This document shows positions 818 through 23,071 of a DNA stretch of 64,000 nucleotides, piece by piece. Numbering within the stretch: position 1 is the first letter of the stretch; every line of letters begins with the position of its first letter. The position numbers were made by a program, and so were the translations under genes. The DNA is from an uncultured Methylomirabilota bacterium. Lineage in GTDB: Bacteria > Methylomirabilota > Methylomirabilia > Methylomirabilales > 2-02-FULL-66-22. Location: NCBI GenBank assembly GCA_963705305.1, contig OY970067.1:4512001-4576000 (forward strand), read 5' to 3'. A model generated the notes under the pieces. It was not told the origin of the DNA and made no database searches. It worked only from the letters and a program-made list of their open reading frames with translations.

Positions 818-1152
818 TGGCCTACTGGCTCTGCCTGGCCCTCTTCTGCATCGGTCTCTACGGCATCCTGCGGAAGCGCAGCCTCATCAAGATCATCATC
901 GGGATCATCATCTGCGAGTACGCCGCGAACCTCCTGTTCATCCTCATGGGGTACCGATGGGAGGGCCGCGCGCCCATCCTGGATCCCGGAGCCACCATCG
1001 AGAACATGGTGGATCCCCTGCCGCAGTCGGTCGTCCTCACCACGATCGTGATCGGCCTGGCGACCACCATCCTCCTGGTGGCGCTGGCCATGCGGCTGTA
1101 CGAGAAGTATGGCACCTTCGATATCACCAAGATCCGGGAGCTCCGGGGATGA
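817..1152 (+). CDS. mnhC: MnhC/MrpC (MbhG, NuoK-like) subunit
   Basis: ATG at 817 overlaps the TGA of mnhB; IGLYG..LIKIIIG and DPLPQSVVLTTIVIG motifs. Confidence 0.9.
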   Translation: MAYWLCLALFCIGLYGILRKRSLIKIIIGIIICEYAANLLFILMGYRWEGRAPILDPGATIENMVDPLPQSVVLTTIVIGLATTILLVALAMRLYEKYGTFDITKIRELRG

Positions 1153-2648: not shown

Positions 2649-2649
2649 C

Positions 2650-3153
2650 ATGCTGAGACGGCACGCCGGGCCGACCGTCGTCTGTTATGCCATCTGGTGC
2701 GTGCTGAATTGGCCGCCGGGCTGGCAGTCCCTGATCCTGGGACTTCCGGTCACGGCCCTGGTCGCCTGGCTGACCTGCGGCCTTCCGGCTGCGGCCTCCG
2801 GCCCGGCCCTGCTTCGGCCGGCGCGCCTGTGGTACTTCTGCGCCTGGTATCTTCCCGTCTACTGGTGGGAGTGTCTCAAGGCCAATCTGGATGTGGCCTA
2901 CCGCGTGCTTCACCCAGCCCTGCCCATCTGTCCGGCGGTGGTTCGCGTCCAGACCGGACTGCACTCCGACGTGGCCCTGACGATGCTGGCCAATACCATC
3001 TCGCTGACCCCCGGGACAACGTCCGTGGACGTCGACCAGGCGAGGGGAATTCTCTACGTGCACTGCATGGCCGTCTCGCCCGCCCAGATCGATCGGGACG
3101 CCGCGATCATCGTCGGCCGCTTTGCCCGGATCCTGCGCAGGGTCTTCGAGTAG
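2650..3153 (+). CDS. mnhE: MnhE/MrpE (MbhA) subunit
   Basis: KANLDVAYRVLHP and LANTISLTPGT motifs. Confidence 0.9.
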   Translation: MLRRHAGPTVVCYAIWCVLNWPPGWQSLILGLPVTALVAWLTCGLPAAASGPALLRPARLWYFCAWYLPVYWWECLKANLDVAYRVLHPALPICPAVVRVQTGLHSDVALTMLANTISLTPGTTSVDVDQARGILYVHCMAVSPAQIDRDAAIIVGRFARILRRVFE

Positions 3154-3165
3154 GAGGGAGACGCG

Positions 3166-3534
3166 GTGGAACGCTGGAGATGGCTGATCGGGGCTGCGGC
3201 CCTGGCGTGGGCCTTGATCGTGATCCTGTGGTGGCCGCTCCCCTTCCTGTTCTACCCGAGGCTCCCATTCGTGGCCCTCTTCGGCCGCGCCCTCTACATC
3301 CTGGTCCTGGCCTCCCTGCTGTGTCTCTACCGGGTGGCCCGCGGACCCACCAGCGCGGACCGGATCGTGGCGGTCGACCTGTTGGGCGTGATGATCATCG
3401 GGTTGTGCGCGGTGCTGACCATCACCACCCGCCGCAGCTGGTACCTGGACATCGGCCTGGCCTGGGCGCTGCAGAGCTTCATCACCGTGCTGGCGCTCAG
3501 CAAGTTTCTGGAGGGCAGGAATCGTGATGCGTGA
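3166..3534 (+). CDS. mnhF: MnhF/MrpF (MbhB) subunit with an N-terminal hydrophobic extension
   Basis: RVARGPTSADRIVAVD and YLDIGL motifs; SD GGAGGGAG before the GTG. Confidence 0.85.
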   Translation: MERWRWLIGAAALAWALIVILWWPLPFLFYPRLPFVALFGRALYILVLASLLCLYRVARGPTSADRIVAVDLLGVMIIGLCAVLTITTRRSWYLDIGLAWALQSFITVLALSKFLEGRNRDA

Positions 3535-3871
3535 ATGGGCGGGACTCCTGTTCGTCGGCCTGGGACTGGCCTTCGACCTCTTCGGCTGCATTGGGCTGAT
3601 CCGCCTGCCGGACGTGTACCTCCGACTCCAGGCCGCCACCAAGTGCATCACGTTGGGGACCTGCAGCATCCTGTTCGGGACGTTCCTGATCATGGGCTTC
3701 ACGGCCGGGGGGATCAAGGCCCTCCTGTGCATCTGTGTCATTGCCCTGACCAACCCGGTGGCCGCTCACGTCATCGCCCGCAGCGCCCATCGGGCCGGCA
3801 TCGCATTCTGGAAGGGAACGCTGGCGGACCAGTACGCAGAGGATCGAGGGAAGCGGCGTGAAGTGGCCTAA
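3527..3871 (+). CDS. mnhG: MnhG/MrpG (MbhC) subunit
   Basis: GLIRLPDVYLRLQAATKCITLG and TNPVAAHVIARSA motifs. Confidence 0.9.
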   Translation: MREWAGLLFVGLGLAFDLFGCIGLIRLPDVYLRLQAATKCITLGTCSILFGTFLIMGFTAGGIKALLCICVIALTNPVAAHVIARSAHRAGIAFWKGTLADQYAEDRGKRREVA

Positions 3872-4469
3872 GCTTCGAGAGCTTCGAGAGGCAGTCAGGG
3901 CGCTGGCGACGGGACCCTATACCTCTTCCTTCCCAGCCGTACCGCACCACCCGCACCCGAACTTCCGGGGCCGGTACACCTTCAACGAAGAGGCGTGCGT
4001 GGGCTGCCTGGCCTGTCAGGAGGTCTGCCCGGTGGGCGCCATCGCGCACGAGGACCGGGTGGAGGGAAAAGGAGCCGCGCGGACCCTGATCCATTACTCC
4101 GACACCTGCATCCTCTGTGGCGAGTGCGAAGCCCACTGCATCGCCGATCACGCGGGCATCCGGACGTCCAGCGAATGGGAGCTCTCCTTCTTCGATCGGA
4201 AGACCCAGTCGTTCGAGACGATCCGAAAGGAGCTCCAGCTCTGCGAGATCTGCGGCGCCGTGATCGCCGCCAAGGACCATCTGCGGTGGCTGGCGGAGCG
4301 ACTGGGCGAGCTCGCCTATTCCAGCCCGACGCTGTACCAGTCCCACCTCCAGCATCTCGGCCTGATCGACGGCAACCTGGTCGCCGCGTGCCGGGACGCG
4401 GCGCGCTCGGATCGGATGAAGATCCTGTGCGCGCCCTGCCGGCGGGCGACCACGCTCGTCGCGGACTGA
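3858..4469 (+). CDS. NuoI/MbhN-like 2x[4Fe-4S] subunit
   Basis: GPYT..FP..FRG N-terminus; CVGCLACQEVCP and CILCGECEAHC; extra CEIC...CAPC cysteines at the C-terminus. Confidence 0.85.
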   Translation: MKWPKLRELREAVRALATGPYTSSFPAVPHHPHPNFRGRYTFNEEACVGCLACQEVCPVGAIAHEDRVEGKGAARTLIHYSDTCILCGECEAHCIADHAGIRTSSEWELSFFDRKTQSFETIRKELQLCEICGAVIAAKDHLRWLAERLGELAYSSPTLYQSHLQHLGLIDGNLVAACRDAARSDRMKILCAPCRRATTLVAD

Positions 4470-4930
4470 TGCAACCCTCCTGGATCCGCCTCCTGCGCGG
4501 CAGGGTCGTCCTGGCGGGCATCGGCAACCCGCTGCGGGGGGACGATGCCGCCGGGCCCCGCCTCATCGAGCGGCTGCAGGGCCGCGTGCGGGCCGCCTGC
4601 GTGGACGCCGGCCCCGCCCCGGAAAACTATGCCGGCCGGATCACGCGGGAGGATCCGGATACAATTGTTCTCGTCGATGCGGTTCATTTGAACCAGGCAC
4701 CGGGTGCGTACGCCCTGCTGGAGCCGCTCGACATCCTGAAGGGCGGGCTCAGCACGCACGACCTCTCCCCTCGGCTGCTCATCGATTACCTCCGCAGACA
4801 CAGCCGGGCCCGCATCTACCTGCTGGGGATCCAGCCGCAAAACCTATCGCTGGGCGCCGATCTGTCCGAGCCGGTCCAGAGGGCCGTGGACGAGCTGGCG
4901 ACTTGCCTGGGCGCAGCGCTCTGCCCCTGA
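4469..4930 (+). CDS. HycI-type hydrogenase maturation protease
   Basis: GIGNPLRGDDAAG, PEN, VDAV, STH and LGIQP motifs; TGATG overlap. Confidence 0.9.
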   Translation: MQPSWIRLLRGRVVLAGIGNPLRGDDAAGPRLIERLQGRVRAACVDAGPAPENYAGRITREDPDTIVLVDAVHLNQAPGAYALLEPLDILKGGLSTHDLSPRLLIDYLRRHSRARIYLLGIQPQNLSLGADLSEPVQRAVDELATCLGAALCP

Positions 4931-5093
4931 AAGGCTGGCCCTCCGAGCCGTCCTTTCGCCCGCTGCTCTTTGGAAGCAATCCTCCCGGGTGCCCCAAACC
5001 GCTTGCGAGCTGCCACTGCCCCTTCCCACTCCGATCCTGGCGGCGCCGTGCCGGCATCACCGAATGCGGCACTCTTGTGAAATATGGAGCAAA

Positions 5094-5238
5094 TGTGAGA
5101 CATAAAACCCCACATCATCGGCCACGAACATCCAACGAAACGCTCTAAATATTATTTTCTAACCTATTGATTATTAAGCAAATATACCATATTAGCATCG
5201 ATCTTCAGCGCCCGAGGCCGAGTTGGTTCCAAACTTGC
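5094..5238 (+). promoter_or_regulatory. Putative sigma54 promoter with IHF site and candidate upstream activator dyad
   Basis: TGGTTCCAAACTTGC at 5224-5238 (GG-N10-GC, TTGC). TAACCTATTGATT at 5160-5172 is an exact reverse complement of the IHF consensus WATCAANNNNTTR, inside an AT-rich tract. Dyad TGTGAG-N9-CCCACA at 5094-5114. Confidence 0.6.
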
Positions 5239-5479: not shown

Positions 5480-7510
5480 ATGCCCCACACGCTGACCACC
5501 TGCACCTTCTGTGGTGTGGGCTGTGGGATTTACCTCGAGACGGCCGGGAACAAGATCACGGGGGCGTATCCGAGCATGTCCCATCCGACCAACCAGGGGC
5601 GCATCTGCGTCCGCGGCTGGCACGTGAACGAGGTGGCCAGCGCTCCCGACCGGCCCCTGCGCCCCCTGCTCCGCCGCAACGGGGATTTCCAGGAGGTCGG
5701 CTGGGATGAGGCCTTGGGCTTCCTGGCCGACCGTTTGCGGAAGATTCGCGACCGCCACGGCCCCAACGCCATCGGCTTTCTGAACTCGCCGCGCAGCGGC
5801 AACGAGGAGAGTTACCTGCTCCAGAAGCTTGCCCGTGCGCTGATCGGAACGAACAACCTGGACCACGGGATGGGGGTCTACCGGCACAACAGCATCGAGG
5901 TCCTGCTGGCGATGCTGGGGGTACCGGCCACGACCAACTCGATCGGCGAGCTGGCCAAGAGCGAGGTGATCATCGTCAACGGGGTGGACCTGGGCCTGCA
6001 GCTTCCCACCGTCGGGGGAATCGTGATGCGGGCCAAGCTCAGGGGGGCGCGCCTCATCGTGATCGACCCCCGGCGGCATCGCATCGCGGAGCACGCCGAC
6101 TACTTCCTGCAGGTGCGGCCCGGCGGCGACACCCTGCTGTACGGGGCCATGGCCAAGGTGATCGTGGACCGGGGGCTCATGAACGCCAAGTTCATCAAGG
6201 CCCACTGCCGCCAGTACGAGCCGTTCCTGGAGCGCGTGCACGCCTACGACCTCCAGTGGGTCGCCGACACCTGCGGCGTCGCCCCGGGGTTGATCGAGGA
6301 GGCGGCCCTCACCTACGCCCGGGCCCACTCGGCCGCCATCCTGTTCTCCACCGGGGTCGAGGCCCGGGGGGACGAGGGGATCCAGGCGCTGGTCAACCTG
6401 GCCCTCCTGACGGGCAATATCGGGAAGGAGGGCTCCGGCATCTTCGCCCTGGCGGAGCACAACAATCTCCAGGGCGTGTGCGACATGGGCATGCTGCCCA
6501 ACCGGCTGCCCGGCTACAAACCCGTGACCGACCCCGAGGCGCGCCGGGAGTTCGAGCTGCTGTGGGGGGCAACGCTGCCGGCCGAGCCCGGAAAGGACGC
6601 CGACCGCCTGCTGGGCGACTGGGGCAACGGCGACGGGAAGGCTCTCTGGGTGTGCCGGCACGACCCCGTCATGGCCGCCTCGCTGGATGCCGCGACCGCC
6701 CTCCGGCAATTTGAGCTGGTGGTGGTGCAGCATCCCTTCCTGACGGAGACCGCCAAGTACGCCCACGTCTTCCTGCCGGCGGCCGCCTTCGGGGAGGAGC
6801 AGGTCACCTTCACCAATACCGAGCGGCGCATCCAGCTGGCCGAGAAGGCGGTCGACCCTCCCGCCGGCCTGACCCCCGCCTGGTGGCAGATCGCGCGCCT
6901 GGCCAACGCCCTGGGGGCATCCTGGAACTACCTGTCGGCCGCGGAGGTCATGGCGGAGATCGCCCGCGTCGTCCCGGCCTACCAGGGCGCCACATACGAC
7001 AATCTGGCCCGGGATTACGGCCGGCAGTGGCCGTGCACCAAGGAGAAGCTGCTGGGGACCCGGTTCCTGTTCGAGGAGGGGATCCAGGACCGCCCCTTCG
7101 CCTTCGCCCCGCTGAACCGGCCCGGTCCGGCGCCCTGTGTCTCCGAGGCATTTCCCTTCGCCCTGTCCTTCGGCAACTCGCTGTACTACTGGCACCACAA
7201 CGTCCTGGTGCAGCACAGCGAGACGCTCAAGCGGGAGTACCAGATCCTGCTGCTCGATTACCCCGAAGGCTTCGTGGACATCAACACGGAGGACGCCCGG
7301 CGCCTGAGCATCCGCGACGGGGCCAAGGTGCGCCTGATATCCGTGACCGGCTCCGCCACCACCACGGCCCGCGTCACCCCCGAGGTGAAGCCGGGCATGA
7401 TCTTCGTCCCGTACTTCCTGCGCGAGGTGCGCCAGCAAATCCTCGGCGAGGCGGGCCGCAGACGCGGCAGCAGCCGGCTGCCGGCCTGCGTGCGCCTGGA
7501 GAGGATGTGA
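5480..7510 (+). CDS. FdhF/NuoG-like molybdopterin-oxidoreductase-fold protein with an N-terminal [4Fe-4S] motif but lacking formate dehydrogenase catalytic residues
   Basis: CTFCGVGC...C cluster motif; GTNNLDH, NNLQGVCDMG and TFTNTERRIQ are FdhF family motifs; no Cys/Sec at the metal-ligand position (GVYRH). SD GGAGGAGG. Confidence 0.85.
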   Translation: MPHTLTTCTFCGVGCGIYLETAGNKITGAYPSMSHPTNQGRICVRGWHVNEVASAPDRPLRPLLRRNGDFQEVGWDEALGFLADRLRKIRDRHGPNAIGFLNSPRSGNEESYLLQKLARALIGTNNLDHGMGVYRHNSIEVLLAMLGVPATTNSIGELAKSEVIIVNGVDLGLQLPTVGGIVMRAKLRGARLIVIDPRRHRIAEHADYFLQVRPGGDTLLYGAMAKVIVDRGLMNAKFIKAHCRQYEPFLERVHAYDLQWVADTCGVAPGLIEEAALTYARAHSAAILFSTGVEARGDEGIQALVNLALLTGNIGKEGSGIFALAEHNNLQGVCDMGMLPNRLPGYKPVTDPEARREFELLWGATLPAEPGKDADRLLGDWGNGDGKALWVCRHDPVMAASLDAATALRQFELVVVQHPFLTETAKYAHVFLPAAAFGEEQVTFTNTERRIQLAEKAVDPPAGLTPAWWQIARLANALGASWNYLSAAEVMAEIARVVPAYQGATYDNLARDYGRQWPCTKEKLLGTRFLFEEGIQDRPFAFAPLNRPGPAPCVSEAFPFALSFGNSLYYWHHNVLVQHSETLKREYQILLLDYPEGFVDINTEDARRLSIRDGAKVRLISVTGSATTTARVTPEVKPGMIFVPYFLREVRQQILGEAGRRRGSSRLPACVRLERM

Positions 7511-7512
7511 GC

Positions 7513-8580
7513 ATGCGGGCACGTGTCATCGGCAAGGCCGACATCCCGGGGCTGCTGGATCTGCTCCGCGAGGAGTACGAGGTCATCGCCCCCTTCTACG
7601 GCCGCGGACGGGACACCTACTTCGACACGGTCACGGATGCGAACCGCGACCGGGTCCAGATCCACGTTCCCAATCCCTACTACCCGCCCAAGCGGTACGT
7701 CTTCCCCCACCTGGAGCAACTGCTCACGGTGGAGATGGACGGCCGGCTGCGCATCGAGCCGACCCAGGACGCCCCCAAGCGGGCGCTCTTCGGCATCCGC
7801 TCCTGCGACACCGCCGGCATCTACCACCTCGACCGGTTCTACCTCGGCCGGGACTACCGGGACGTCTACTACGAGCGCTTGCGGCGCAACCTCTTCCTGG
7901 TCAACGTCGTCTGCACCGACCCGGATCTGGACATCGATGACGACTGCTTCTGCGTCTGCGCCGACACCGGGCCGGCGGCCCGCGACCACTTCGACCTCCA
8001 GCTCATGGACCTGGGCGACGAGCTTCTGGCGGTCGCCGGATCGCCGCAGGGGGAGGCCCTCTTCGCGCACGCCATCTTCCGGCAGGGCACGCCGGCCCAC
8101 GTGGCCAGGCGGCGCGAGATCCTGACCAACGTCCGGAAGCGGTTCAAGCTGGCGACCAGCTGGTACGCGGGCACCGTCCGCTACATCACCACGGACCGCG
8201 TGGCCGACACCACCTGGCAAGGGATCGGCAACCGCTGCCTCGAGTGCGGCGGGTGCAGCTACATGTGCCCGACCTGCACCTGCTTCACCGTCACGGAGCG
8301 CCGCACCGGCCCCTCCACGGTGGAGCGGGTGCGCCTGTGGGATTCGTGCGCCCTGGGTGGATTTACCCGCATGGCCGGCGGGTTCAATCCGCGGCGCGCC
8401 GCCCACGACCGCCGCAACCGTCGCTTCTTCCGAAAGCTGGCCCACTATTTCATCCAGCGGGAGCTGTCGGTGGCCTGTGTGGGGTGCGGGCGCTGTGTGG
8501 AGGTCTGCCACGGGGACATCGGGATGCCCAACGTCGTCGAGACGATTCGGCGGGCCAGCGCGGAGAGCGAGACATCATGA
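7513..8580 (+). CDS. AsrA/HydB (sulfhydrogenase beta)-like Fe-S protein
   Basis: PPKRYVFP, FGIRSCD, CFC, CLECGGCSYMCPTCTCF, RLWDSC and CVGCGRCVEVC motifs. Confidence 0.85.
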   Translation: MRARVIGKADIPGLLDLLREEYEVIAPFYGRGRDTYFDTVTDANRDRVQIHVPNPYYPPKRYVFPHLEQLLTVEMDGRLRIEPTQDAPKRALFGIRSCDTAGIYHLDRFYLGRDYRDVYYERLRRNLFLVNVVCTDPDLDIDDDCFCVCADTGPAARDHFDLQLMDLGDELLAVAGSPQGEALFAHAIFRQGTPAHVARRREILTNVRKRFKLATSWYAGTVRYITTDRVADTTWQGIGNRCLECGGCSYMCPTCTCFTVTERRTGPSTVERVRLWDSCALGGFTRMAGGFNPRRAAHDRRNRRFFRKLAHYFIQRELSVACVGCGRCVEVCHGDIGMPNVVETIRRASAESETS

Positions 8581-9425
8581 GCGGGCTGCAGACGGAGAAC
8601 GTGTACCTCCCCAAAGTCGCGATCCTGGATCGCGTGGTCGACGACATCGCGGACGTCAAGACCTTCTACTGGCACTTCCAGGACCCCGCCGACCAGGCGG
8701 CGTTCCGGGCCTTCAAGCCGGGGCAGTTCGCGCAGGTCTCGGTGTTCGGCACCGGAGAGTTTCCCGCCTCGCTGCCGCCCAGCCCGACTGAGGCGGAGGT
8801 GTTCTTCACCATCCGGCGCGTGGGGGGCGTCACCTCCGCCTTGCACCAGCTGGCGCCCGGCAGCCAATTCGGCGTCCGGGGACCCTACGGGAACGGGTTC
8901 CCCATGCAGGACTACGCCGGGCGGAACCTGGTGTTCGTGGCCGGGGGCATCGGCCTCATCCCCCTGCGATCCTGCATCATCTACGCGCTCCACAACCGGG
9001 AGAAATTCGGGAAGATCCAGCTCTTCTACGGCGCACGCGGCCCGCGCGAGCTGATGTACCTGGACCAGCTGCGCACCTGGGAGCAGACCGAGGGCTTCGA
9101 GTGCTACCTGACCGTGGACCGCGCAGACGAATCCTGGCGCGGGCACGTGGGGGTGGTGGGCAGCCTGTTCAAAGTGGCCGGCGTCCAGGTCCCGGTGGAG
9201 AACACCACCGCCTTCGTCTGCGGGCCCCCAATCATGTTCCGATTCGTCATCCGGGACTTGAAGGACATGGGATTCGAGGACCGGCACATCATGTCCACCC
9301 TGGAGCGCTACATGAAGTGCGGCGTGGGAAAGTGCGGCCACTGCTGCATCGGGCTGGCCTACGTGTGTGTGGACGGTCCGGTCTTCACGTTCGAGCAGAT
9401 CAAGAAGCTGGGCGAGGTCATCTGA
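8577..9425 (+). CDS. AsrB/HydG (sulfhydrogenase gamma)-like FAD/NAD(P)-binding subunit with [2Fe-2S]
   Basis: FKPGQF, GVRGPYGNGF, AGGIGLIPLR, CGPPIM and MKCGVGKCGHC...VCVDGPVF motifs. Confidence 0.9.
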   Translation: MSGLQTENVYLPKVAILDRVVDDIADVKTFYWHFQDPADQAAFRAFKPGQFAQVSVFGTGEFPASLPPSPTEAEVFFTIRRVGGVTSALHQLAPGSQFGVRGPYGNGFPMQDYAGRNLVFVAGGIGLIPLRSCIIYALHNREKFGKIQLFYGARGPRELMYLDQLRTWEQTEGFECYLTVDRADESWRGHVGVVGSLFKVAGVQVPVENTTAFVCGPPIMFRFVIRDLKDMGFEDRHIMSTLERYMKCGVGKCGHCCIGLAYVCVDGPVFTFEQIKKLGEVI

Positions 9426-9937
9426 TGGGCGATCTTCGGTCCGATCTTCGCGCGTGCCTCGCCGGACGAGTCTGCCTCGTCGGCGTCGGCAATCCGGACC
9501 GGGGCGACGACGCCTTCGGCCCGCGGCTGGCCGAGGCCCTGCAGGCGGCCGGCGTGCCCGACGTGGTCGTAGCGGGCACCACGCCGGAGCATTGGATCGG
9601 CCGCCTCGGCGACGGGCGCTTCGAGACCATTATTTTTCTGGATGCGGTCGAGGTGGGGGCGGAGCCGGGCGCAGCAGTCCTCCTCGACGCCGGAGCGCTG
9701 GCCGCCCGGTTCCCCCAGATCTCCACCCACAAGATCTCCCTGGGGGCCCTGGCCCGGGTGCTGGAGAGCACGGGGCGCATCCGCGTCTGGCTGCTCGGCG
9801 TTCAGCCGAAGTCGCTGGCCATGGGACCCGATCTCAGCCCGCCCCTCCGGGCCACCCTGGACATCCTGAGGGATCTGCTCTACGACGCGCTGTCCGCCCG
9901 GATGGCGGGCGCGAACTCGGTGTGGGGGCAAGTATGA
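9425..9937 (+). CDS. HycI-type hydrogenase maturation protease
   Basis: GVGNPDRGDDAFG, TPE, LDAV, STH and LGVQP motifs. Confidence 0.9.
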   Translation: MGDLRSDLRACLAGRVCLVGVGNPDRGDDAFGPRLAEALQAAGVPDVVVAGTTPEHWIGRLGDGRFETIIFLDAVEVGAEPGAAVLLDAGALAARFPQISTHKISLGALARVLESTGRIRVWLLGVQPKSLAMGPDLSPPLRATLDILRDLLYDALSARMAGANSVWGQV

Positions 9938-11913
9938 CTGCGGCCAACGCCATCCTGATAGCCTTTCTCGCCTGCGCCGGCGGAGCCCTGCTGACCCTCG
10001 CCGCCTCCCGCAGCAAGCCCGTGGCTGGCTGGCTGGCGCTCATCGCAACCGCCCTGTCCAGCGGCCTGGCCATGTACGCGGCGGGGCGCGTCCTGTTTCA
10101 CGGACCCGACCCCGCGGTCGTCCTCTGGAGCCTGCCCCAGTTCGGCTCGACCCTGCGCATCACGGTGGACGGTCTGAGCGGGGTCTTCCTGGGCCTGATT
10201 GCCCTGATCGCCTTCCTGGCCGCCTTGTACTCCATCCCCTATCTGGAGCACTATCCGGACTACGGTGCGGGCCGCTATTACCCGTATTTCCTGCTCTTCG
10301 TCGGGGGAATGTACGGCATCGTCTCCACCAGCGACCTGATGCTCTTCTTCTGCCTGTTCTGGCAGGTCATGACCCTGGCGTCCTACGCCCTGGTCCGCTA
10401 CGAATACCGCAGGCCGGAGAACGTCCGGGCGGCCAACAAGTATCTGCTGCTGATGGAGATCGCCTGCGCCCTGATCTTGCTGGGGGCCCGTCTGCTGGCC
10501 AGCGGGCCGCTCACGCTGCCCACCGGGGAGGTCCTGGCACGCTACGACTTCGACGCCATCGCGCACGGCCTGCCGGGCCTTCTGCCGGGCGGCGCCGGCC
10601 TGGTGGCGGGGGCCCTCCTCCTGTTCCTGGTGGGCTTCGGGATCAAGGCCGGGATGTGGCCGCTCGGCCAGATCTGGCTGCCGGACGCCCATCCGGCCGC
10701 CCCCTCCCCGGTGAGCGCCCTCCTGTCGGGAGTCATGATCAAGACCGGGATCTACGGCCTCATGCGCTCCTTCCTGTGGCTCATCCCTGCAGAGGCGAGC
10801 GGGGCGCTTCGCCTACAAATCTGGGGGCTGGCCATCGCCCTCCTGGGGACGATCACCCTGTTCGTGGGGACCATGCAGGCCCTCCGGCAGGAGCAGTCCA
10901 AGCGACTGCTGGCCTTCAGCAGCATCGGCCAGGTGGGCTACATCCTGCTGGGGCTGGGGGCCTGCCTGGCGCTGTTCCCCGCGGGATCGGGCGCAAGCCC
11001 CGCTCTGCTCCTCTCCACCCTGGCCCTGTACGCCGCCCTCTTCCATACGCTGAACCACGGCCTGTTCAAGAGCCTGCTGTTCCTGAACGCCGGCTCGGTG
11101 CTGTACGCCACCGGCACGCAGGACCTGAATCGCCTGGGGGGCCTGATCCGGTTCATGCCCCTCACCGCCCTCACCACCCTGGTCGCCTCGCTGGCCATCT
11201 CGGGGGTCCCGCTGCTGAACGGCTTCGCCAGCAAGTGGAGCCTGTACGTCGCCGTCCTCCTGGGAAGCCGCTTCTCCCCCTTCCTGGCGGTCTGTGCGGT
11301 GGTGGCCATGCTGACGAGCGCCGTGACCCTGGCGCTCTTCCTCAAGTTCTTCGGCGCGGCCTTCCTGTCGCGGACCAGCCGACTGGTGGCGGACCGCGCC
11401 CGCCAGCCGCACGGCCTGAAGGTCGGCTGGTGCATGCAGGCCCCCCAGCTCGTCCTGGCAGTCCTCTGCCTGTTCCTCGGCCTGGCGCCGGCGGCGGCCT
11501 TCCAGATCATCCACCGGGCCCTGGCCGGCTCCCCGCAAGGACTGGGCACGGCCCTGGCCCAGGCCTCGCCCTTCGTCGTGGCGGCCCGAACGGGCATCGG
11601 GGCCCTGGACGGCCGGGCGGTCTTCGCCCCGTTGGCGGTGGCCGTCGTCTTCGCCGGCCTGCTGCTCGGCGTCGCCTGGGTCTCCCGCCTGGGAGGCACG
11701 GTGCGACGGTCGGCCGAGCCCTGGCTGTGCGGCTATGTCGCCGAATCGGAGCAGACCCGTTACGGCGCGCGGAATCTCTACCGGGAGGTCACCCGGTACT
11801 TTGGCTGGCTGGGAGGGACGCGCCCTCTCCCGGCCGCTCGACCCGTGACGGATCCGCCGACGGATGCACATTCCCCGGGGGGCCAAGCGTCCACCCCGGG
11901 CGCAAGGACATAA
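9934..11913 (+). CDS. HycC/HyfB-like antiporter-like membrane subunit
   Basis: ATGA overlap; GIKAGMWPLGQIWLPDAHPAAPSPVSALLSG, KRLLAFSS, PLLNGFASKW and C-terminal WLCG motifs. Confidence 0.88.
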   Translation: MTAANAILIAFLACAGGALLTLAASRSKPVAGWLALIATALSSGLAMYAAGRVLFHGPDPAVVLWSLPQFGSTLRITVDGLSGVFLGLIALIAFLAALYSIPYLEHYPDYGAGRYYPYFLLFVGGMYGIVSTSDLMLFFCLFWQVMTLASYALVRYEYRRPENVRAANKYLLLMEIACALILLGARLLASGPLTLPTGEVLARYDFDAIAHGLPGLLPGGAGLVAGALLLFLVGFGIKAGMWPLGQIWLPDAHPAAPSPVSALLSGVMIKTGIYGLMRSFLWLIPAEASGALRLQIWGLAIALLGTITLFVGTMQALRQEQSKRLLAFSSIGQVGYILLGLGACLALFPAGSGASPALLLSTLALYAALFHTLNHGLFKSLLFLNAGSVLYATGTQDLNRLGGLIRFMPLTALTTLVASLAISGVPLLNGFASKWSLYVAVLLGSRFSPFLAVCAVVAMLTSAVTLALFLKFFGAAFLSRTSRLVADRARQPHGLKVGWCMQAPQLVLAVLCLFLGLAPAAAFQIIHRALAGSPQGLGTALAQASPFVVAARTGIGALDGRAVFAPLAVAVVFAGLLLGVAWVSRLGGTVRRSAEPWLCGYVAESEQTRYGARNLYREVTRYFGWLGGTRPLPAARPVTDPPTDAHSPGGQASTPGART

Positions 11914-11914
11914 G

Positions 11915-13597
11915 ATGCCGGCACACAGGATTCTCCAGCAGCTGAACGAGAAGTTCGCGGCGGTCATCCAGCGGACCGATATCCCCGAGAACACTCGGCT
12001 GTTCGTGTACGTCGAGCCCCAGGCCGTGCCCGACATCTGCCGCCACATCTTTCGGGACCTGGACGCCCGCTATGTCGTGAGCATCGGCCTGGACGACCGG
12101 CCCATCTCGGGGAAGTTTCTGGTGGCCCACGATTTCGCCTTCGATGCCGCCCACGTCCTGTGCAGCATCCTGGCCTACGTGCCCAGCCCCGATCCGCGGA
12201 TCGACAGCATCGCTCCCGCCGTCCCGCCGGCCAACTGGGCCGAGCGCGAGTTTCGGGATCTGGTGGGCATCCAGCCGGTGGGGCACCCGTCCCCCAAGCG
12301 GCTGATCCTGCCGGACGGCTGGCCCGAGGGGGTGCATCCGCTGCGCCGGGACTACCCCTGGAACGCGGTGCCGCCCGGCTACGACGAGACCCGGGAGTAC
12401 GCCTTCGATGACGCGCCGGAGGGCTGCGTGGCCGTCCCCTTCGGCCCCTTCCACCCCACCCTGGACGAGCCGGCGCACTTCCGGCTGTACGTCGAGGGGG
12501 AGATCGTTCGCGGCTGCGAATACCGGGGCTTCATGGTCCATCGCGCCATCGAGAAGCTGGGCGACTCCGTCCTCACCTACAACGAGATCCCCATGGCCGC
12601 CGAGCGCATCTGCGGCATCTGCGGCTGCGTCCACAACGTGGCCTATGCCCAGGCGGTGGAACAGGCGGTGGCGCTCAAGCCGCCTCCCCGGGCCGAATAT
12701 ATCCGGACCATCATGCTGGAGATCGAGCGGCTGCACAGCCATCTCCTCTGGGTGGGGCTGGCCTGCCACATTCTGGGATTCGACACGCTGTTCATGCAGT
12801 GCTTCCGCATCCGCGAGCCCATCATGTGGGTGGCGGAGAAGATCAGCGGCAACCGCAAGACCTACGCCCTCTGCGTGGTGGGGGGCGTCCGCTGGGACAT
12901 CACCCCCCCGCTGAAGGCGGAGCTGCAGCAGGTCCTCTCCACCCTGGAGGCCGAGTGGCGGCCCGTCGCCGCCGCCGTCAGCGGAGATCGGAACATCCAG
13001 CAGCGGACGCGGGGGATCGGAATGGCCGGTCCGCGCCTGGTCAAGGAGGCGGCCCTCATCGGCCCGGTGGCCCGGGCCGCCGGCGTGGACATCGACTGCC
13101 GCCGCGACCACCCCTACGCCGCGTACGGGCGGGTGGACTTCGCGGTGGTGGTGCAGAGCGGAGGCGATGTCTGGTCGCGCCTCCTGGTGCGGGTCCTGGA
13201 GGTCTTCGAGTCCATCAAGATCATCCGCCAGTGCCTGGATCAGATGCCCGAGGGTCCGCTCTGCCTCCCCGCCGGGGACGAGCTGCCCGCCGGCCGCATG
13301 GGGGTGTCCTCGGTGGAAGCCCCGCGGGGCGAGTCCCACCACTTCGTGATCACCGGGGAAAACAACCGCCCCCGGCGCTGGCGCGTGCGGGCGCCGACGT
13401 ACCAGAATCTGCAGGGGGTCCCGGCCATGATCCGGGACCAGCAAATCGCCGACATGACCATCACGCTGGGGAGCATCGACCCGTGCTTCTCCTGCACGGA
13501 TCGCCTGGAGGTGGTCGACGTTCGTTCGGGCGCGGTGCGGGTGTATGCGCAGGCGGAGCTTCTGGCGCTGGCCCGCGCCCCCCGGACCGGGCAATAG
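11915..13597 (+). CDS. Group 4 [NiFe]-hydrogenase large subunit (HycE-like NuoC+NuoD fusion)
   Basis: N-terminal NuoC-like WAEREFRDLVG..GHP...HPLRRD; L1 ERICGICGCVH; L2 DPCFSCTDR followed by a cleavable C-terminal extension. Confidence 0.93.
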   Translation: MPAHRILQQLNEKFAAVIQRTDIPENTRLFVYVEPQAVPDICRHIFRDLDARYVVSIGLDDRPISGKFLVAHDFAFDAAHVLCSILAYVPSPDPRIDSIAPAVPPANWAEREFRDLVGIQPVGHPSPKRLILPDGWPEGVHPLRRDYPWNAVPPGYDETREYAFDDAPEGCVAVPFGPFHPTLDEPAHFRLYVEGEIVRGCEYRGFMVHRAIEKLGDSVLTYNEIPMAAERICGICGCVHNVAYAQAVEQAVALKPPPRAEYIRTIMLEIERLHSHLLWVGLACHILGFDTLFMQCFRIREPIMWVAEKISGNRKTYALCVVGGVRWDITPPLKAELQQVLSTLEAEWRPVAAAVSGDRNIQQRTRGIGMAGPRLVKEAALIGPVARAAGVDIDCRRDHPYAAYGRVDFAVVVQSGGDVWSRLLVRVLEVFESIKIIRQCLDQMPEGPLCLPAGDELPAGRMGVSSVEAPRGESHHFVITGENNRPRRWRVRAPTYQNLQGVPAMIRDQQIADMTITLGSIDPCFSCTDRLEVVDVRSGAVRVYAQAELLALARAPRTGQ

Positions 13598-13607
13598 GGA
13601 AGGAGCC

Positions 13608-14534
13608 ATGAACGCTGGCCTGGGCCTCATGCTGCTCTTCGCGGCGCTGAACGCGGCGCTGGTGCTCGCCGTGGCCCCCCTGTGCGAGGGGATCCTGCGC
13701 AAGGTCACTGCCAAGATCCAGTCCCGGCAGGGGCCGCCGCTCTGGCAGCCCTACTACGACTTGCTGAAGCTGCTGGGCAAGGAGGACCTCGAATCGGGGG
13801 AAAGTCCCCGGATGCAGCGGTTCGCGGCCGTCCTCGCCCTCTCCGCCATCCTGATGGTGGCCATGCTGATCCCCATGGGGCGCCCGGCCCCGCTGGGCGG
13901 GTACGGCGATGTCGTGCTCCTCATCTACCTGCTGACCCTCTGCGGGATCTCCACCATGCTGGCCGGTCTGGCCGCGGGCTCCACCTATTCCCTGGTGGGC
14001 ATGAGCCGGGAGATGATGTCTCTCATGACCCTGGAGCCGCTGCTGGCCGTGGCGATCATCATCGGGACCGTCCATGCCGGCTCGCTGCGCTTGGGGACGG
14101 TGCTGAACGGATCCCTGTACGCCTCGGGTGCGCTTCCCCTGGCCGGCCTCCTCATGCTGGTGGTGGTGCTCCTCTCCCTGCAGGGATTCGTGGGGCGGCT
14201 CCCCTTCGACATCGCCGAGGCCGAGACGGAGCTGATGGAGGGGCCGCTGGCGGAGTACTCGGGGGCCAAGCTGGCGCTCTTCAAGTTCGCCCAGATGGTC
14301 AAGCTGGTGGTGTACAGCGCGCTCCTGGTGGCCCTGTTCGCCCCCTGGGGGAGCGCCTGGCCATACCCCCTGAGCGCGCTCGTGCTGCTGGCCAAGATCT
14401 TGGTCCTGGTCCTGCTTGTGACGCTGGTGGCGGCGACCCACGCCCGCTACCGCATCGATCAGGCCATCCGCTACTACGCCGGCCTGTTCGGCGCCGCCTT
14501 TGTGGCCCTGCTTTTGGCCCTGTGGGGCTTTTGA
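13608..14534 (+). CDS. HycD/NuoH-like membrane subunit
   Basis: RKVTAKIQSRQGPPLWQPYYDLLKLLGKE and RLPFDIAEAETELMEGPLAEYSG motifs; SD AGGAG. Confidence 0.92.
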   Translation: MNAGLGLMLLFAALNAALVLAVAPLCEGILRKVTAKIQSRQGPPLWQPYYDLLKLLGKEDLESGESPRMQRFAAVLALSAILMVAMLIPMGRPAPLGGYGDVVLLIYLLTLCGISTMLAGLAAGSTYSLVGMSREMMSLMTLEPLLAVAIIIGTVHAGSLRLGTVLNGSLYASGALPLAGLLMLVVVLLSLQGFVGRLPFDIAEAETELMEGPLAEYSGAKLALFKFAQMVKLVVYSALLVALFAPWGSAWPYPLSALVLLAKILVLVLLVTLVAATHARYRIDQAIRYYAGLFGAAFVALLLALWGF

Positions 14535-14548
14535 GGAACGGGGGAGCC

Positions 14549-15073
14549 ATGTCGCTGCTGAGCAAGCTGAAGGAAACCGCGATCTGCCTGCGGGCTGGAA
14601 GGGTGACCCGGCCCTACCCGGCCCAGCCGGCCCCCACCCCTCCCGGCTTCCGGGGACGGCCGATCTTCGATGCGAGCAAGTGCATCGGCTGCGCCGGCTG
14701 CGCCAACAACTGCCCCGCCCGCGAGATCCTGGTCCACGACATCTGCCAGGAGATCCGCATCATCAAGTACATCGGGCGCCGCTGCACCTATTGCGGCCGC
14801 TGCGCCGACGTCTGTCCCGAAAAGGCCATCACGATGAGCACGGACTTCGAGACCGCCACCAACGACATCCACGACCTCCAGCAGGAGCTCGAGCTGTTCA
14901 TGGGGACCTGCCAGCGCTGCGGCCGCTGCTTCAAGGAGCCGGGGCCCCTCGAGCAGCTCATGATGAAGGGGTACCGGTTCGACGAGCTCAAGGACGATCG
15001 GTGGATCCACCGCTCGACGGCCTACCTTGAGGGCCAGCCGGTGGTCCGAGATATTGAGATCGAGCTGGATTGA
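14549..15073 (+). CDS. HycF/NuoI-like 2x[4Fe-4S] subunit
   Basis: TRPYP..FRGRP; CIGCAGCANNCP and CTYCGRCADVCP; additional CQRCGRC. Confidence 0.9.
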   Translation: MSLLSKLKETAICLRAGRVTRPYPAQPAPTPPGFRGRPIFDASKCIGCAGCANNCPAREILVHDICQEIRIIKYIGRRCTYCGRCADVCPEKAITMSTDFETATNDIHDLQQELELFMGTCQRCGRCFKEPGPLEQLMMKGYRFDELKDDRWIHRSTAYLEGQPVVRDIEIELD

Positions 15074-15081
15074 CGCCATAA

Positions 15082-15233
15082 CAGGCCGCTGAAAAAGGCC
15101 CATCTGCGGCGTTGGTCCGCTCGGGCACTCGCTGCGGCGTACTGAAAGTACGCCTCACTCAGCCCTTTGCGGACCGCCTTGCATCTGGACCTTTTTGAGC
15201 AGCCTGGGGGAAGGCGGGTTTTTCATCACACTG
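15082..15233. mobile_element. MITE-like structured repeat, copy 1
   Basis: CAGGCCGCTGAAAAAGGCCCATCTGCGG ... GCCTTGCATCTGGACCTTTTTGAGCAGCCTG, central GGCGTACTGAAAGTACGCC hairpin; related copies at 17280 and 40923. Confidence 0.7.
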
Positions 15234-15249
15234 ATAGGGGGGAACGGAC

Positions 15250-15785
15250 GTGTTAAAGGGACTCTGCCGGAAGGTCTTCCCGCGGTCGCTCTGGGTCTAC
15301 CACGCCAACAGCGGGGGCTGCAACGGATGCGACATCGAGGTCCTGAACGTCCTGACCCCGTATTATGATGTGGAGCGCTTCGGCATCCGGCTGGTGGGCT
15401 CCCCCCGCCACGCCGATGTGATGCTGTGCCAGGGACCCGCCATGCGGTCCACCGCCCGGGCGCTGCGGCGCGCCTACGAGGCCATGCCCGCCCCCAAACT
15501 GGTCTTCGCGATCGGCTCTTGCGCATGTGGGGGGGACTCTGGTATGATACATACAGCGTCCTGGGGCCGGTGGAGAAGGTGCTTCCCGTGGATTTCTACA
15601 TCCCGGGCTGCCCGCCCCGCCCCGAGGCGATCCTCTACGGGGTGGCGGTGGCGGTAGGGCTGGTGGACAAGAAGGTGGCGCCGGTCCAGCTCAAGCAGCT
15701 GGAGTTCCCGATCCCGAAATACCATCCGGAAGACCTCCAGCAGGACGACGGCATGGTCGTCTATCAGAAGCTCAACCGGGTGTAA
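15250..15785 (+). CDS. Group 4 [NiFe]-hydrogenase small subunit (HycG/NuoB-like), split by a 1-nt frameshift in a G7 run at 15529-15535
   Basis: First frame: [33 protein letters not shown]. Second frame: [24 protein letters not shown]. One extra G joins the two. Confidence 0.88.
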
Positions 15786-15844
15786 GCTGCCTCCGCGTCC
15801 CGCCGCCTGCCGTTCCCCCCGCGAGGGCCCTGTGAAGGAGTATC

Positions 15845-16186
15845 ATGCACGAAGTGGGCCTGATGCAGGACACGCTCATCATCGCGCTCCGGCACGCCAC
15901 GCAGGAGGGCGCCCGGCGGGTTCACCGCCTGACCATGCGGGTGGGTCCCCTGTCGGGTGCCGTCCCCGAGGCCCTGGAGTTCGCCTTTGACGTGCTGGCC
16001 CGCGGCACCATGGCCGAGGGCGCCCGTCTGGAGATCGAGCGCGTCCCCATCGTGTGCTACTGTCCGAGCTGTGCCCAGGAATTCACGGCCGACGATTTCC
16101 TCTGCGAATGTCCCCACTGCCATGCGCCCAGCGTGGAGGTTCGGCACGGCCGGGAGCTGGAGCTCGCCAGTCTGGAGGTATCCTGA
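15845..16186 (+). CDS. hypA: Hydrogenase maturation nickel metallochaperone HypA
   Basis: MHEVGL start, two CxxC motifs, GRELEL end. Confidence 0.95.
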
Positions 16187-16187
16187 C

Positions 16188-17084
16188 GTGTGCAAGGAAT
16201 GCGGCTGCGGCATCGTGGAAGGCTTTCGAGTCGACGGAGAGCCGGTCGTTGCGGACCCGGGGCCGGGTACCCCCGGGGTGGCCCCCGGGGCGGCGCATAC
16301 CCATTCGCACGAGGCCGGGGAGGACCACGGCCATTCCCATCCGCACCCGCACGGGCCGCATGTCCACGGCGCCGACCATGCGCACGACCACCGGACGGTC
16401 CCGGTGCACGAGGCGATCCTCGATAAGAACGACCGGCTGGCCGAGCGGAACCGCGGCTACTTCGCCGGCAAGGGCCTGCTCGTGCTCAACCTGCTCTCCT
16501 CCCCGGGCGCCGGCAAGACCGCTTTCATCGAGCGGACGGTGGCGGACCTGGGGGCGCGCCTCCGGGTCGGCGTGATCGTGGGCGACCTCGAAACGGACAA
16601 CGACGCGCGGCGGCTGCGCGGCCGCGGGGTACCGGCGGTCCAGATCACCACCGGCAACGTGTGCCACCTGGATGCGGAGATGGTCGCCCACGCCCTGGAG
16701 CGGCTGGAGCTGGACGCCCTGCAGGTCCTCATCATCGAAAACGTGGGGAACCTGGTCTGCCCGGCCTCCTACGATCTTGGCGAGGACTTCCGCGTGGTGA
16801 TCATGTCGGTCACCGAGGGCGAGGACAAGCCGCTCAAGTACCCGGTCATGTTTCGCACCGCGCAGGTGGTCGTGGTCAACAAGACCGACATCCTCGAAGC
16901 CGTCGGATTCGACCGCGAGACCGCCCTGCAAAACATCCGCCGCGTGGCCCCCCAGGCCACCATCTTCGAGCTTTCGGCGCGCACGGGAGAAGGCATGGCG
17001 CAGTGGTACCAATACCTCGAGGAGCGGCTGCGCCGGCCCCGCCACGGCGTGATCCGAAACCCGGCGGGAACGGCAGCCTCCTAA
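16188..17084 (+). CDS. hypB: Hydrogenase nickel incorporation GTPase HypB with His-rich segment
   Basis: GTG start MCKECGC; His-rich linker; [36 protein letters not shown]. Confidence 0.95.
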
Positions 17085-17682: not shown

Positions 17683-17936
17683 ATTTTCAAAGTGAGATTG
17701 GTCAGGCCAGCGGACCATCTGGCCTCAGGTGATAAGGGGAAGCTACGAAAGGAACCCAAACCAGGAAATAAGCCGCATTACCGGATTGAGCTCGTCGTCT
17801 CGACCCGTCAAACAACCATCGAAAGACGCCATGATTACACGCGATCAGCGCACCGACACCTCATAATTCTCGCGCGACCGACCCGTCACGACACCGGCCG
17901 CGCTGCGCCAAACCCCGCGACCTCCCGGAGGGGGCA

Positions 17937-19997: not shown

Positions 19998-20009
19998 GGG
20001 GGATTGGGC

Positions 20010-20525
20010 ATGACTGATCGCGCCATGCACGAGATGCAGGAGGCTCCATCGGCCCCGGGAAGCTGGGAGCCCCGGATCGTCGGATTCCTCTGCTACTGGT
20101 GCTCGTACACCGGGGCGGACGGGGCCGGGACAGCGCGCATGTCCTACCCCCCCAACGTGGACATCGTGCGCCTGATGTGCTCGGGACGCTGCGACCCCCA
20201 GCTGATTACCGCCGCGTATGCCAACGGCGCCGATGGGGTCCTCGTCCTGGGCTGCCACGTCGGCGATTGCCACTACATCAGCGGGAACCACAAGACCATG
20301 GCGCGCATGCCGCTGCTGCGCCGCGTCCTGGACGAGCTGGGCATCGAGCCGGAGCGGTTTCGCCACGACTGGGTGAGCGCCGCCGAGGGGGAGAAATTCA
20401 CCCGGGTGGTGACCGAGATGACCGAGCAGGTGCGCCGGCTGGGTCCCCTGAACTGGCCCGGGCTCCTGCATGCGCGAGGGGTCGGACACGGCATGGATCT
20501 CCATCCCTGGGGGGAGCGCCCATGA
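20010..20525 (+). CDS. mvhD: MvhD [2Fe-2S] subunit
   Basis: FLCYWCSYTGAD, MCSGR, GCHVGDCHY and WVSAAEG motifs. Confidence 0.93.
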   Translation: MTDRAMHEMQEAPSAPGSWEPRIVGFLCYWCSYTGADGAGTARMSYPPNVDIVRLMCSGRCDPQLITAAYANGADGVLVLGCHVGDCHYISGNHKTMARMPLLRRVLDELGIEPERFRHDWVSAAEGEKFTRVVTEMTEQVRRLGPLNWPGLLHARGVGHGMDLHPWGERP

Positions 20526-23034: not shown

Positions 23035-23071
23035 ACCGGCGGGACGGAGCCCCCCAGGGAAAGGGCGCACC

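Follow-up and report, generated by a model that had tools for sequence, protein, structure and literature searches.

A conserved nine-gene group 4 [NiFe] hydrogenase operon that joins a degenerate formate dehydrogenase-like subunit to a predicted NAD(P)H-reacting module

Formate hydrogenlyase (FHL) of Escherichia coli, the soluble sulfhydrogenase I (SHI) of Pyrococcus furiosus and respiratory complex I are the described systems closest to the operon reported here. FHL of E. coli is under regulation of the sigma-54/FhlA type and is accompanied by the accessory genes HycA and HycH, and the NuoG subunit of complex I includes a molybdoenzyme-derived domain that has no catalytic centre. We analyzed a stretch of 64,000 nucleotides (the window) from contig OY970067.1 of an uncultured Methylomirabilota bacterium (GenBank assembly GCA_963705305.1, positions 4,512,001 to 4,576,000), the genome of which is a single contig of 5.65 Mb that is 98.9% complete; the G+C content of the window is 64–71%. 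Nine co-directional genes on the + strand at 5480–15785, identified by Pfam and NCBIfam profile searches (Table 1), encode a formate dehydrogenase-like protein (FdhX), two subunits resembling the beta and gamma subunits of SHI (hereafter beta-like and gamma-like), a maturation endopeptidase and the five proteins of a group 4 hydrogenase core. On balance, judging from gene content and residue conservation, we lean towards reading this operon as an ion-translocating, membrane-bound, complex-I-like H2:NAD(P)(H) oxidoreductase in which the formate dehydrogenase (FDH) subunit is degenerate and NuoG-like.

The operon shares with E. coli FHL-1 (7z0s/7z0t) the HycC/D/E/F/G core, the proteins of which are 30–53% identical to E. 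coli Hyc/Hyf proteins, as well as the domain fusion in HycE, the C-terminal extension of that subunit and the protease HycI. It departs from FHL-1 in having neither HycB nor HycH, in an FdhX that does not have residues U140, H141 and R333, and in its two extra sulfhydrogenase-type subunits. The Cys ligands of beta and gamma and the FAD (flavin adenine dinucleotide)/NAD(P) motifs of the NADPH-reacting module of P. furiosus SHI (group 3b; 9nez/9nf0) are kept; however, SHI is soluble and combines beta and gamma with group 3b alpha and delta subunits, whereas here the module stands beside a membrane-bound group 4 core. As in complex I, a NAD(P)H flavoprotein module would lead through an Fe-S chain to NuoB/NuoD homologues seated on NuoH/NuoL-type subunits, and a molybdoenzyme-fold subunit is present (FdhX; compare the C-terminal domain of NuoG). 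Unlike complex I, the module is of the HydBG rather than the NuoEF type, there is an intact Ni-Fe centre rather than a quinone pocket, and the FDH-like protein is a separate polypeptide. The resemblance to respiratory complex I is functional only.

A preliminary reading of the window from its letters and translated open reading frames (the sequence-only reading) had known of no characterised complex with this composition. The composition is, nonetheless, already in print as an in silico remark, of which our operon is a further example: Takano et al. 2026 (Front Microbiol, PMC13582414) state that the Mo-ligand Cys or selenocysteine (Sec) is missing from roughly one in two Fdh sequences of the Group 4b clusters, and that SHI-gamma and SHI-beta homologues co-occur with the clusters concerned. 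Our operon likewise combines a Cys/Sec-less Fdh, SHI-beta/gamma homologues and a group 4 core, and Methylomirabilota, Acidobacteriota and Armatimonadota all appear in the Group 4b table of that paper. It differs from the clusters described there in that (i) the typical cluster has a HyfE-like protein, several antiporter subunits and several ferredoxins, whereas our operon has nine genes with one antiporter subunit and neither of the other two components; (ii) the focus of that paper is on Sec variants, whereas the window copy and 56 orthologues have Cys at the Ni-Fe ligand positions; and (iii) bifurcation is proposed there, whereas our residue analysis favours a dead FDH. Six contigs of the window clade were looked for in the table, and none is present. 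As for other sources, the passages of HydDB that were consulted name no class of group 4 coupled to NAD(P), and the clusters of Matheus Carnevali et al. 2018 are of other kinds; Hausmann et al. 2018 called the ‘fdhF, hyf operon’ of an acidobacterial metagenome-assembled genome (MAG), a cluster possibly of the same type as ours, a formate hydrogenlyase. We rejected assignment to a ‘Group 4f’ class, which in the literature at hand is given only as putatively formate-coupled or Ehr-like and does not match.

All nine genes that the sequence-only reading had assigned to one operon (FdhF-fold, AsrA-like, AsrB-like, protease, and HycC-, HycE-, HycD-, HycF- and HycG-like proteins) were recovered, and the nine-gene architecture is well supported. 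The gene starts at 7513, 9425, 11915, 13608 and 14549 were refined by orthologue comparison, start codons and ribosome-binding sites. The same reading had described the genes as tightly coupled; this holds for the first five junctions, which overlap or abut, but not for the remainder, where gaps of 10 nucleotides (nt) (HycE/HycD), 14 nt (HycD/HycF) and 176 nt (HycF/HycG, occupied by a dispersed repeat) were found. The predicted lack of a HycB-like linker was borne out, in that E. coli HycB and HyfA have no match among the operon proteins at E<1e-3 and the block conserved among the 80 related loci described below contains no such gene. Nor does any operon protein match the E. coli queries for HycH or HyfE; HycA, which we also give as absent, was not among the queries. 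The operon in the window contains no extra ferredoxin gene and, by Pfam, no NuoE or NuoF domains, and the conserved block contains neither AsrC nor a group 3b subunit.

With the beta-like protein as query, we scanned a single genome of each species and kept the best 80 of 119 relatives, which are 66–80% identical to it. Labelled by record title, 33 of these 80 loci belong to Acidobacteriota, 27 to Verrucomicrobiota, six to Planctomycetota and four each to Methylomirabilota and Armatimonadota; two are unclassified, and Baltobacteraceae, Ca. Fervidifonticultor, Thermodesulfobacteriota and Chlamydiota contribute one each. The operon is thus found in at least eight phyla, and the shared order is FdhX-beta-gamma-HycI-HycC(-HycC2)-HycE-HycD-HycF-HycG. 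Counting gene presence at an identity threshold of 45% and only among loci with room for the gene, we found FdhX upstream of the beta-like gene in 74/74 and the gamma-like gene in 77/77, followed by HycI (72/74), HycC (66/67), HycE (62/63), HycD (59/60), HycF (57/58) and HycG (55/56); all of the genes occur together in 51 of the 54 loci with room. The exceptions are one locus without HycD, HycF and HycG (L056), one without HycC and HycE (L057) and one in which HycI, at 41%, lies under the threshold (L080). This conservation of the operon block is far beyond chance. The sequence-only reading had named absence of the three input genes from group 4 cores elsewhere as an outcome that would speak against it; since these genes accompany a group 4 core in essentially every relative, the synteny came out in its favour.

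We also looked beside the block for conserved genes, for example of regulators or transporters, and no family occurs in more than eight of the 80 loci; a scan of flanking genes gave HypA, HypB, further hydrogenase parts and enzymes of unrelated kinds. Because no flanking family exceeds this number, we regard the nine genes as the conserved unit. Two variants were observed. Directly after the first, a second HycC/HyfB-like antiporter gene is present in nine loci, all from Verrucomicrobiota (L009, L015, L027, L047, L052, L065, L070, L072 and L073), which form a two-antiporter variant. In five Verrucomicrobiota loci, FdhX is preceded at a distance of about 14 nt by a co-directional gene for a 388-residue protein with a domain of the dihydroorotate dehydrogenase type (DHO_dh; for example, L074:6791-7957); this protein could be an added subunit or a substrate module in that sub-lineage.

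Within its own phylum the operon is rare. Among 151 phylum genomes, the beta-like gene occurs at 77% identity or more in only two, the source genome (G000) and G054, while two more contain paralogues with 33–37% identity. Patchy distribution within the phylum, together with 60–80% identity across phyla, fits horizontal spread. The same-genus relative G054 has FdhX-AsrA-AsrB-HycI at 61–80% identity on a contig that stops 5' of hycG. In metagenome protein collections, we found at least 120 FdhX clusters at 90% identity, and all of those listed are at least 64% identical to FdhX of the window; their sources name them ‘molybdopterin-dependent oxidoreductase’ or ‘formate dehydrogenase’.

FdhX retains the overall features of an FDH catalytic subunit. 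Its matches in the PDB include FdhF of hydrogen-dependent carbon dioxide reductase (HDCR; 7qv7_S, 1.1e-130) and E. coli FdhH (1.1e-108), it shares 35% identity with FdhF of E. coli, and its best family match is TIGR01591, with a score of 584.5 bits that falls under the curated cut-off of 666.25; it also matches TIGR01973 NuoG (1.3e-33). Individual positions were compared in an alignment of 74 FdhX sequences with E. coli FdhF and with 30 canonical Fdh-alpha sequences that belong to the phylum of the window; as the canonical set is from one phylum, some of its ‘invariants’ may be lineage-specific. Residues Y134, R135, A325 and R45 of the window FdhX align to U140, H141, R333 and K44 of E. coli FdhF. 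From the structural literature on FdhH, we take U140 to be the metal ligand, H141 the catalytic histidine and R333 the catalytic arginine, and we likewise take the role of K44 from there. The column of U140, which is Cys or Sec in 30/30 canonical sequences, is occupied in the 74 FdhX sequences by Y (60), F (10), H (3) and S (1). The column of H141 (H in 29/30 canonical sequences) most often contains C (42), followed by R (12, including the window), S (11), T (5) and G (3), these being the five commonest residues. R333, conserved in 30/30 canonical sequences, is never Arg in FdhX (T 40, S 16, A 13, N 5), and K44, present in all 27 canonical sequences that cover the column, is Arg in 74/74. Conversely, the [4Fe-4S] cysteines are kept: C8, C11 and C15 in 74/74 sequences and C43 in 73/74.

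These replacements, which agree with the earlier description of the protein as a pseudo-formate dehydrogenase, bear directly on the label given to such loci by automated annotation and in some MAG papers, namely that of an ordinary formate hydrogenlyase in which FdhX oxidises formate and the electrons make H2. The label draws on TIGR01591 being the best family match, on the identity of FdhX to FdhF and of the core to Hyc/Hyf proteins, on the name ‘formate dehydrogenase’ that relatives carry in their source annotations, and on the acidobacterial cluster of Hausmann et al. 2018, which may be of another type. Against it stand the score below the family cut-off, the replacement of U/C140, H141 and R333, the lack of HycB, and the lack of any flanking family in more than eight of the 80 loci. 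Regulation of the sigma-54/FhlA type was considered and rejected as well: the window has TGG-N8-TTGC, a motif with the wrong spacing, and the sigma-54-type TGG-N9-TTGC was found in only two of 69 upstream regions, versus five on the reverse-strand control. We therefore hold an ordinary formate hydrogenlyase to be highly improbable. A catalytically degenerate FdhX, in effect a dead FDH, is well supported by the loss of its active-site residues. No other gene in the genome reaches the cut-off of TIGR01591 or TIGR01553 for another Mo/W formate dehydrogenase, the next-best two matches being proteins of the dimethyl sulfoxide (DMSO) reductase family. Matches of about 560–595 bits to TIGR01591 elsewhere in the phylum were considered as FdhX orthologues and rejected; because the beta-like gene occurs in only two of 151 genomes, we regard these as a different FDH-like family and did not count them. 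The TIGR01591 tally for the phylum, and presumably that for the beta-like gene, includes three unpublished genomes (G029, G058 and G101), which contributed no sequence to the analysis and on which no conclusion depends.

How far FdhX has decayed can be judged from the columns that are invariant in canonical FDHs, defined as those with at least 93% conservation in the canonical set and considered kept if conserved in at least 80% of the FdhX sequences. Of 154 such columns, 85 are kept and 69 are lost. Among the 65 lost columns that are ungapped, 16 have been fixed to a new residue (including R45, W47 and E326), 23 are intermediate and 26 are highly variable, and the mean conservation of these 65 columns is 0.683, compared with 0.726 for the whole protein. 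The canonical C-terminal P-E-x-K columns are gapped in most FdhX sequences. Several of the lost blocks, namely G-x-N...H-P, G-E-N-P, T-G-R and P-E-x-K, may be pterin-contact segments. Across phyla the FdhX sequences have a mean pairwise identity of 0.63. At residue 135, which directly follows the position once occupied by Sec/Cys, 42 of the 74 orthologues have Cys.

The same numbers must be considered in connection with the proposal of Takano et al. 2026 that such complexes are three-terminal and bifurcating or confurcating, with an Fe-S network that reaches the Ni-Fe site, a NAD(P)H flavin and an Fdh-like subunit turning over a third substrate. In their AlphaFold models of a related 12-gene Group 4b cluster (representative cluster MDI6776830.1–MDI6776841.1), the network has three branches, one of which terminates in the Fdh-like subunit, and the paper reads this as bifurcation or confurcation with an unidentified third substrate. 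The strong conservation of FdhX, the 85 canonical columns that it keeps, the columns fixed to new residues and the frequent Cys135 would all suit this proposal; because of the kept columns and Cys135, a residual cofactor site is possible. However, even close FdhX orthologues differ from one another at the metal-ligand position and at those of the catalytic His and Arg, as would not be expected of a conserved active site, many of the lost columns are highly variable, and P-E-x-K is mostly gapped. Furthermore, the modelled cluster is larger than ours, and the six contigs of the window clade that were looked for are absent from the table of that paper. No known bifurcating cofactor is evident in the operon. 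We know of no flavoprotein of the SHI-gamma/AsrB type that is a bifurcating site. Taking these points together, we consider a bifurcating complex distinctly unlikely for this operon.

The two subunits encoded between FdhX and HycI correspond to the AsrAB/HydBG-type unit that the sequence-only reading had postulated. The only PDB match of the beta-like subunit is SHI beta of P. furiosus (9nez_B, 1.2e-35), and all 16 of its Cys residues are invariant in 81/81 sequences; because its NCBIfam scores are under the equivalog cut-offs, it is a homologue rather than an orthologue of HydB/AsrA. The gamma-like subunit has SHI gamma as its best PDB match (9nez_C, 3.3e-57), and the FAD, NAD(P) and [2Fe-2S] motifs of the two proteins align. 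In the GGIGLIP motif, six of seven positions are conserved in 74/74 sequences and only L127 varies (62/74); CGPP is present in 74/74, as is each of the [2Fe-2S] cysteines C248, C253, C256 and C264.

Of the docking that had been suggested between the input module and the core, one pair, the beta-like subunit with HycF, was folded. It scored 0.52, versus 0.00 for the best of three controls, which lends weak support to direct contact; at least 36% of the contacts agree among runs, and the predicted local distance difference test (pLDDT) value of the partner is at least 64. The mark used is reached by 116 of 157 solved complexes and by two of 215 mismatched pairs, and scores of 0.60 or less comprise only 18 of the 157 solved complexes together with both passing mismatches. 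The fold is thus a weak pointer to a beta-like subunit that may dock on HycF.

The HycC/D/E/F/G core is present, with hycG frameshifted in this assembly. The large subunit contains RICGICG and DPCFSCTDR, the intact CxxC motifs noted at the outset, followed by a 30-residue C-terminal extension; the motifs are invariant in 57/57 sequences, with Cys at all four Ni-Fe ligand positions in the window copy and in 56 orthologues. Sec in place of Cys was looked for in the operon proteins of the relatives, and the in-frame stops found lie at the edges of high-scoring segment pairs (HSPs) or in genes with split HSPs, none of them at a Cys position. The best PDB match of the large subunit is HycE (7z0s_E, group 4a; 2.8e-127), and its identity is 39% to HycE and likewise 39% to HyfG. 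HycI-like and HycD-like proteins are 31% identical to E. coli HycI and 32–39% identical to E. coli HycD and HyfC, respectively, while the antiporter subunit is nearer to HyfB than to HycC (192 vs 124 bits). In the antiporter subunit, 62/62 sequences have the same residues at K270, H371, H375, K379 and K434, the counterparts in the alignment of K239, H328, H332, K336 and E391 of E. coli HycC; by analogy with this subunit family in general, these would be ion-path residues.

The expected HycG-like protein is encoded, but its gene is split in the window by a one-base deletion. Two open reading frames, 15250–15657 and 15426–15785, cover positions 1–81 and 80–125 of the Oxidored_q6 profile, and the G run at 15529–15535 has seven G where the in-frame reading requires eight. 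Orthologues are in frame across this run (GSCACGGGLWYD), and GSCA[C/G]GGG[L/I/V]W is read through in frame in six of them. Such a frameshift could mean that the operon is here a decaying pseudogene cluster, in which the deletion and the insertion of the repeat are both real and have abolished the small subunit. This would be in line with the repeat-bearing spacer just 5' of hycG, a junction that in most orthologous loci is only about 10–40 nt long, and with the presence of the beta-like gene in only two of the phylum genomes, because of which the operon would appear dispensable in the Methylomirabilota lineage. However, the rest of the operon genes are intact, and the halves of hycG are still 66–94% identical to orthologues. 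Moreover, frame changes without a nearby stop were found genome-wide at 12 of 335 G/C 7-mers in clear coding context (3.6%), compared with 325 of 40,000 random coding positions (0.8%), and this roughly four-fold excess fits homopolymer under-calling in the single-contig assembly. Split HSPs and in-frame stops also occur in operon genes of other MAG relatives (L014, L019, L070 and L077). An assembly error is therefore a more likely source of the hycG frameshift than recent inactivation, and we consider a decaying cluster unlikely. Across the genome we observed 29 frameshift-like sites at G/C runs of six or more, and the excess suggests roughly ten homopolymer indels in the assembly, whether errors or real.

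In a search of sequencing runs, no run reached a share above 0.11 of the words sampled, and the runs listed include none of RNA. When four metagenome runs were compared with 14900–15900, no contig piece among those listed spanned the G run. Searched against the genome with blastn, the spacer at 15074–15249 gives 182 HSPs including itself, at 70–92% identity. Contigs from wetland, groundwater and sediment metagenomes pile up on the repeat, with a summed word depth in the thousands, whereas in the same runs the depth over the flanking genes is below 130 in all but two short bins; because of this pile-up, the repeat family seems to be widespread.

Because FdhX has lost its catalytic residues, NAD(P)(H) rather than formate is most likely to be the soluble partner of the complex. 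In the mechanism that we infer, NAD(P)H would bind the gamma-like subunit, with its FAD and [2Fe-2S] cluster, and electrons would next travel along the clusters of the beta-like subunit, which are ligated by its 16 invariant cysteines; this subunit would take the place of HycB. From there they would reach, in turn, HycF (2x[4Fe-4S]), HycG ([4Fe-4S]) and the Ni-Fe site of HycE, and HycD together with the HyfB/HycC-like antiporter subunit would couple the reaction to ion movement. FdhX, in which only the [4Fe-4S] cluster and the fold are left, would most likely be a scaffold with an off-pathway or auxiliary cluster, as is the C-terminal domain of NuoG. Given standard potentials of about -320 mV for NAD(P)H and -414 mV for H2, the evolution of H2 from NAD(P)H costs about 18 kJ/mol, so that H2 production would need low H2 pressure or a membrane potential. 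Alternatively, the complex may run in the opposite direction, oxidising H2 to yield NAD(P)H and pump ions.

Several points weigh against an ion-translocating H2:NAD(P)(H) oxidoreductase, in addition to the branched network and the possible residual cofactor site of the Fdh-like subunit described above. The binding of NAD(P)H by the gamma-like subunit is predicted from homology to SHI gamma, and as AsrAB/HydBG modules serve different terminal enzymes, homology fixes neither direction nor partner. Docking of the input module was modelled for one pair, and weakly. The window copy may itself be inactive, given the frameshifted hycG and the repeat between hycF and hycG. Finally, full-text literature searches, which covered few subscription journals, found no biochemical study of any member, as the sequence-only reading had supposed.

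The oxidoreductase that we favour can be placed in a wider frame, which we put forward tentatively and hold to be quite conceivable. The operon may be a living analogue of the passage from FHL to complex I, that is, an ion-translocating, NAD(P)(H)-linked [NiFe] hydrogenase that recruited the sulfhydrogenase beta and gamma subunits, and in which the FDH decayed to a cofactor-less, NuoG-like scaffold with an N7-like side cluster. Such a complex would provide a reversible link between H2, pyridine nucleotides and membrane potential in soil and peat bacteria of many phyla.

The operon lies among further hydrogenase genes (Table 1). The genes hypA and hypB are directly downstream of hycG. In the 549-nt spacer 5' of the operon, an AT-rich island is possibly a promoter or regulatory region, a candidate on base composition; a scan for the sigma-70 consensus upstream of the operon gave 0 sites. 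Further upstream, window positions 1–4930 (+) contain the tail of a second group 4 hydrogenase operon, of the Mrp type, which reaches to about G000:C1:4509285 and has its HycE-length large subunit just outside the window; its genes have no match in any of the 80 related loci and so lie outside the conserved unit. Downstream, genes of the heterodisulfide reductase and group 3c hydrogenase types are clustered at 17835–32956 (+). The two group 4 operons, hypAB and the Hdr/Mvh cluster make up a ‘hydrogen island’ of more than 33 kb. Elsewhere in the genome, two more HycE-length open reading frames (567 and 530 residues, at G000:C1:5302671 and 5606970) match Complex1_49kDa, split in the way that is seen for large subunits of group 4, so that there are four HycE-length large-subunit genes of the group 4 type, besides two NuoD genes.

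Table 1. Features of the nine-gene operon and of its surroundings, in window coordinates
Feature	Position	Strand	Evidence
FdhX (FdhF-fold, 676 residues)	5480-7510	+	Pfam Molybdop_Fe4S4, Molybdopterin, Molydop_binding
AsrA/HydB (SHI-beta)-like Fe-S subunit	7513-8580	+	Pfam Fer4_22; NCBIfam sulfhyd_HydB 4e-42, AsrA 1.2e-38, below cut-offs
AsrB/HydG (SHI-gamma)-like subunit, predicted FAD/NAD(P)/[2Fe-2S]	8577-9425	+	Pfam NAD_binding_1, DHODB_Fe-S_bind
HycI-type maturation endopeptidase	9425-9937	+	Pfam HycI; TIGR00072 96.8 bits, above cut-off
HyfB/HycC-like antiporter-type membrane subunit	9934-11913	+	Pfam Proton_antipo_M, Proton_antipo_N; NCBIfam best match hydrogenase 4 subunit B, 394.8 bits
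HycE-like [NiFe] large subunit, NuoC-like domain fused N-terminally	11915-13597	+	Pfam Complex1_30kDa, Complex1_49kDa, NiFeSe_Hases
HycD/NuoH-like membrane subunit	13608-14534	+	Pfam NADHdh 8.8e-60
HycF/NuoI-like 2x[4Fe-4S] subunit	14549-15073	+	NCBIfam formate hydrogenlyase iron-sulfur subunit 3.2e-30; aligned with E. coli HycF, HyfH
Dispersed intergenic repeat copy, about 160 nt, between hycF and hycG	15079-15240	.	blastn against genome
HycG/NuoB-like small subunit, in two frames	15250-15785	+	Pfam Oxidored_q6
hypA (nickel insertion)	15845-16186	+	TIGR00100 118 bits, above cut-off
hypB (nickel insertion)	16188-17084	+	TIGR00073 298 bits, above cut-off
AT-rich island in 549-nt spacer 5' of operon	5070-5200	+	top 40-nt window 85% A+T
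MrpD-like gene, Mrp-type operon	507-2648	+	
MrpF-like gene, Mrp-type operon	3154-3534	+	
HycF/NuoI-like gene, Mrp-type operon	3858-4469	+	
HycI-like protease, Mrp-type operon	4466-4930	+	
HdrA+MvhD	17835-20525	+	NCBIfam
Short HdrA-like gene	23015-24400	+	NCBIfam
QmoC-like gene	24439-25884	+	NCBIfam
HdrC/HdrB-like genes	26091-27889	+	NCBIfam
HdrA-MvhD-MvhG-MvhA	27624-32956	+	NCBIfam

If the proposed function is correct, the operon would represent a third wiring of energy-converting hydrogenases, besides those to formate or CO and to ferredoxin, with a direct coupling of H2 to NAD(P)(H) and to the membrane potential. This type of operon occurs commonly and in many phyla, and annotations routinely give it the name of a formate dehydrogenase or formate hydrogenlyase; as a consequence, metabolic models of peat, soil and groundwater may assign formate-driven H2 production where it is absent. 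It would also be a natural test case for the origin of the inert NuoG domain of complex I from an FDH subunit.

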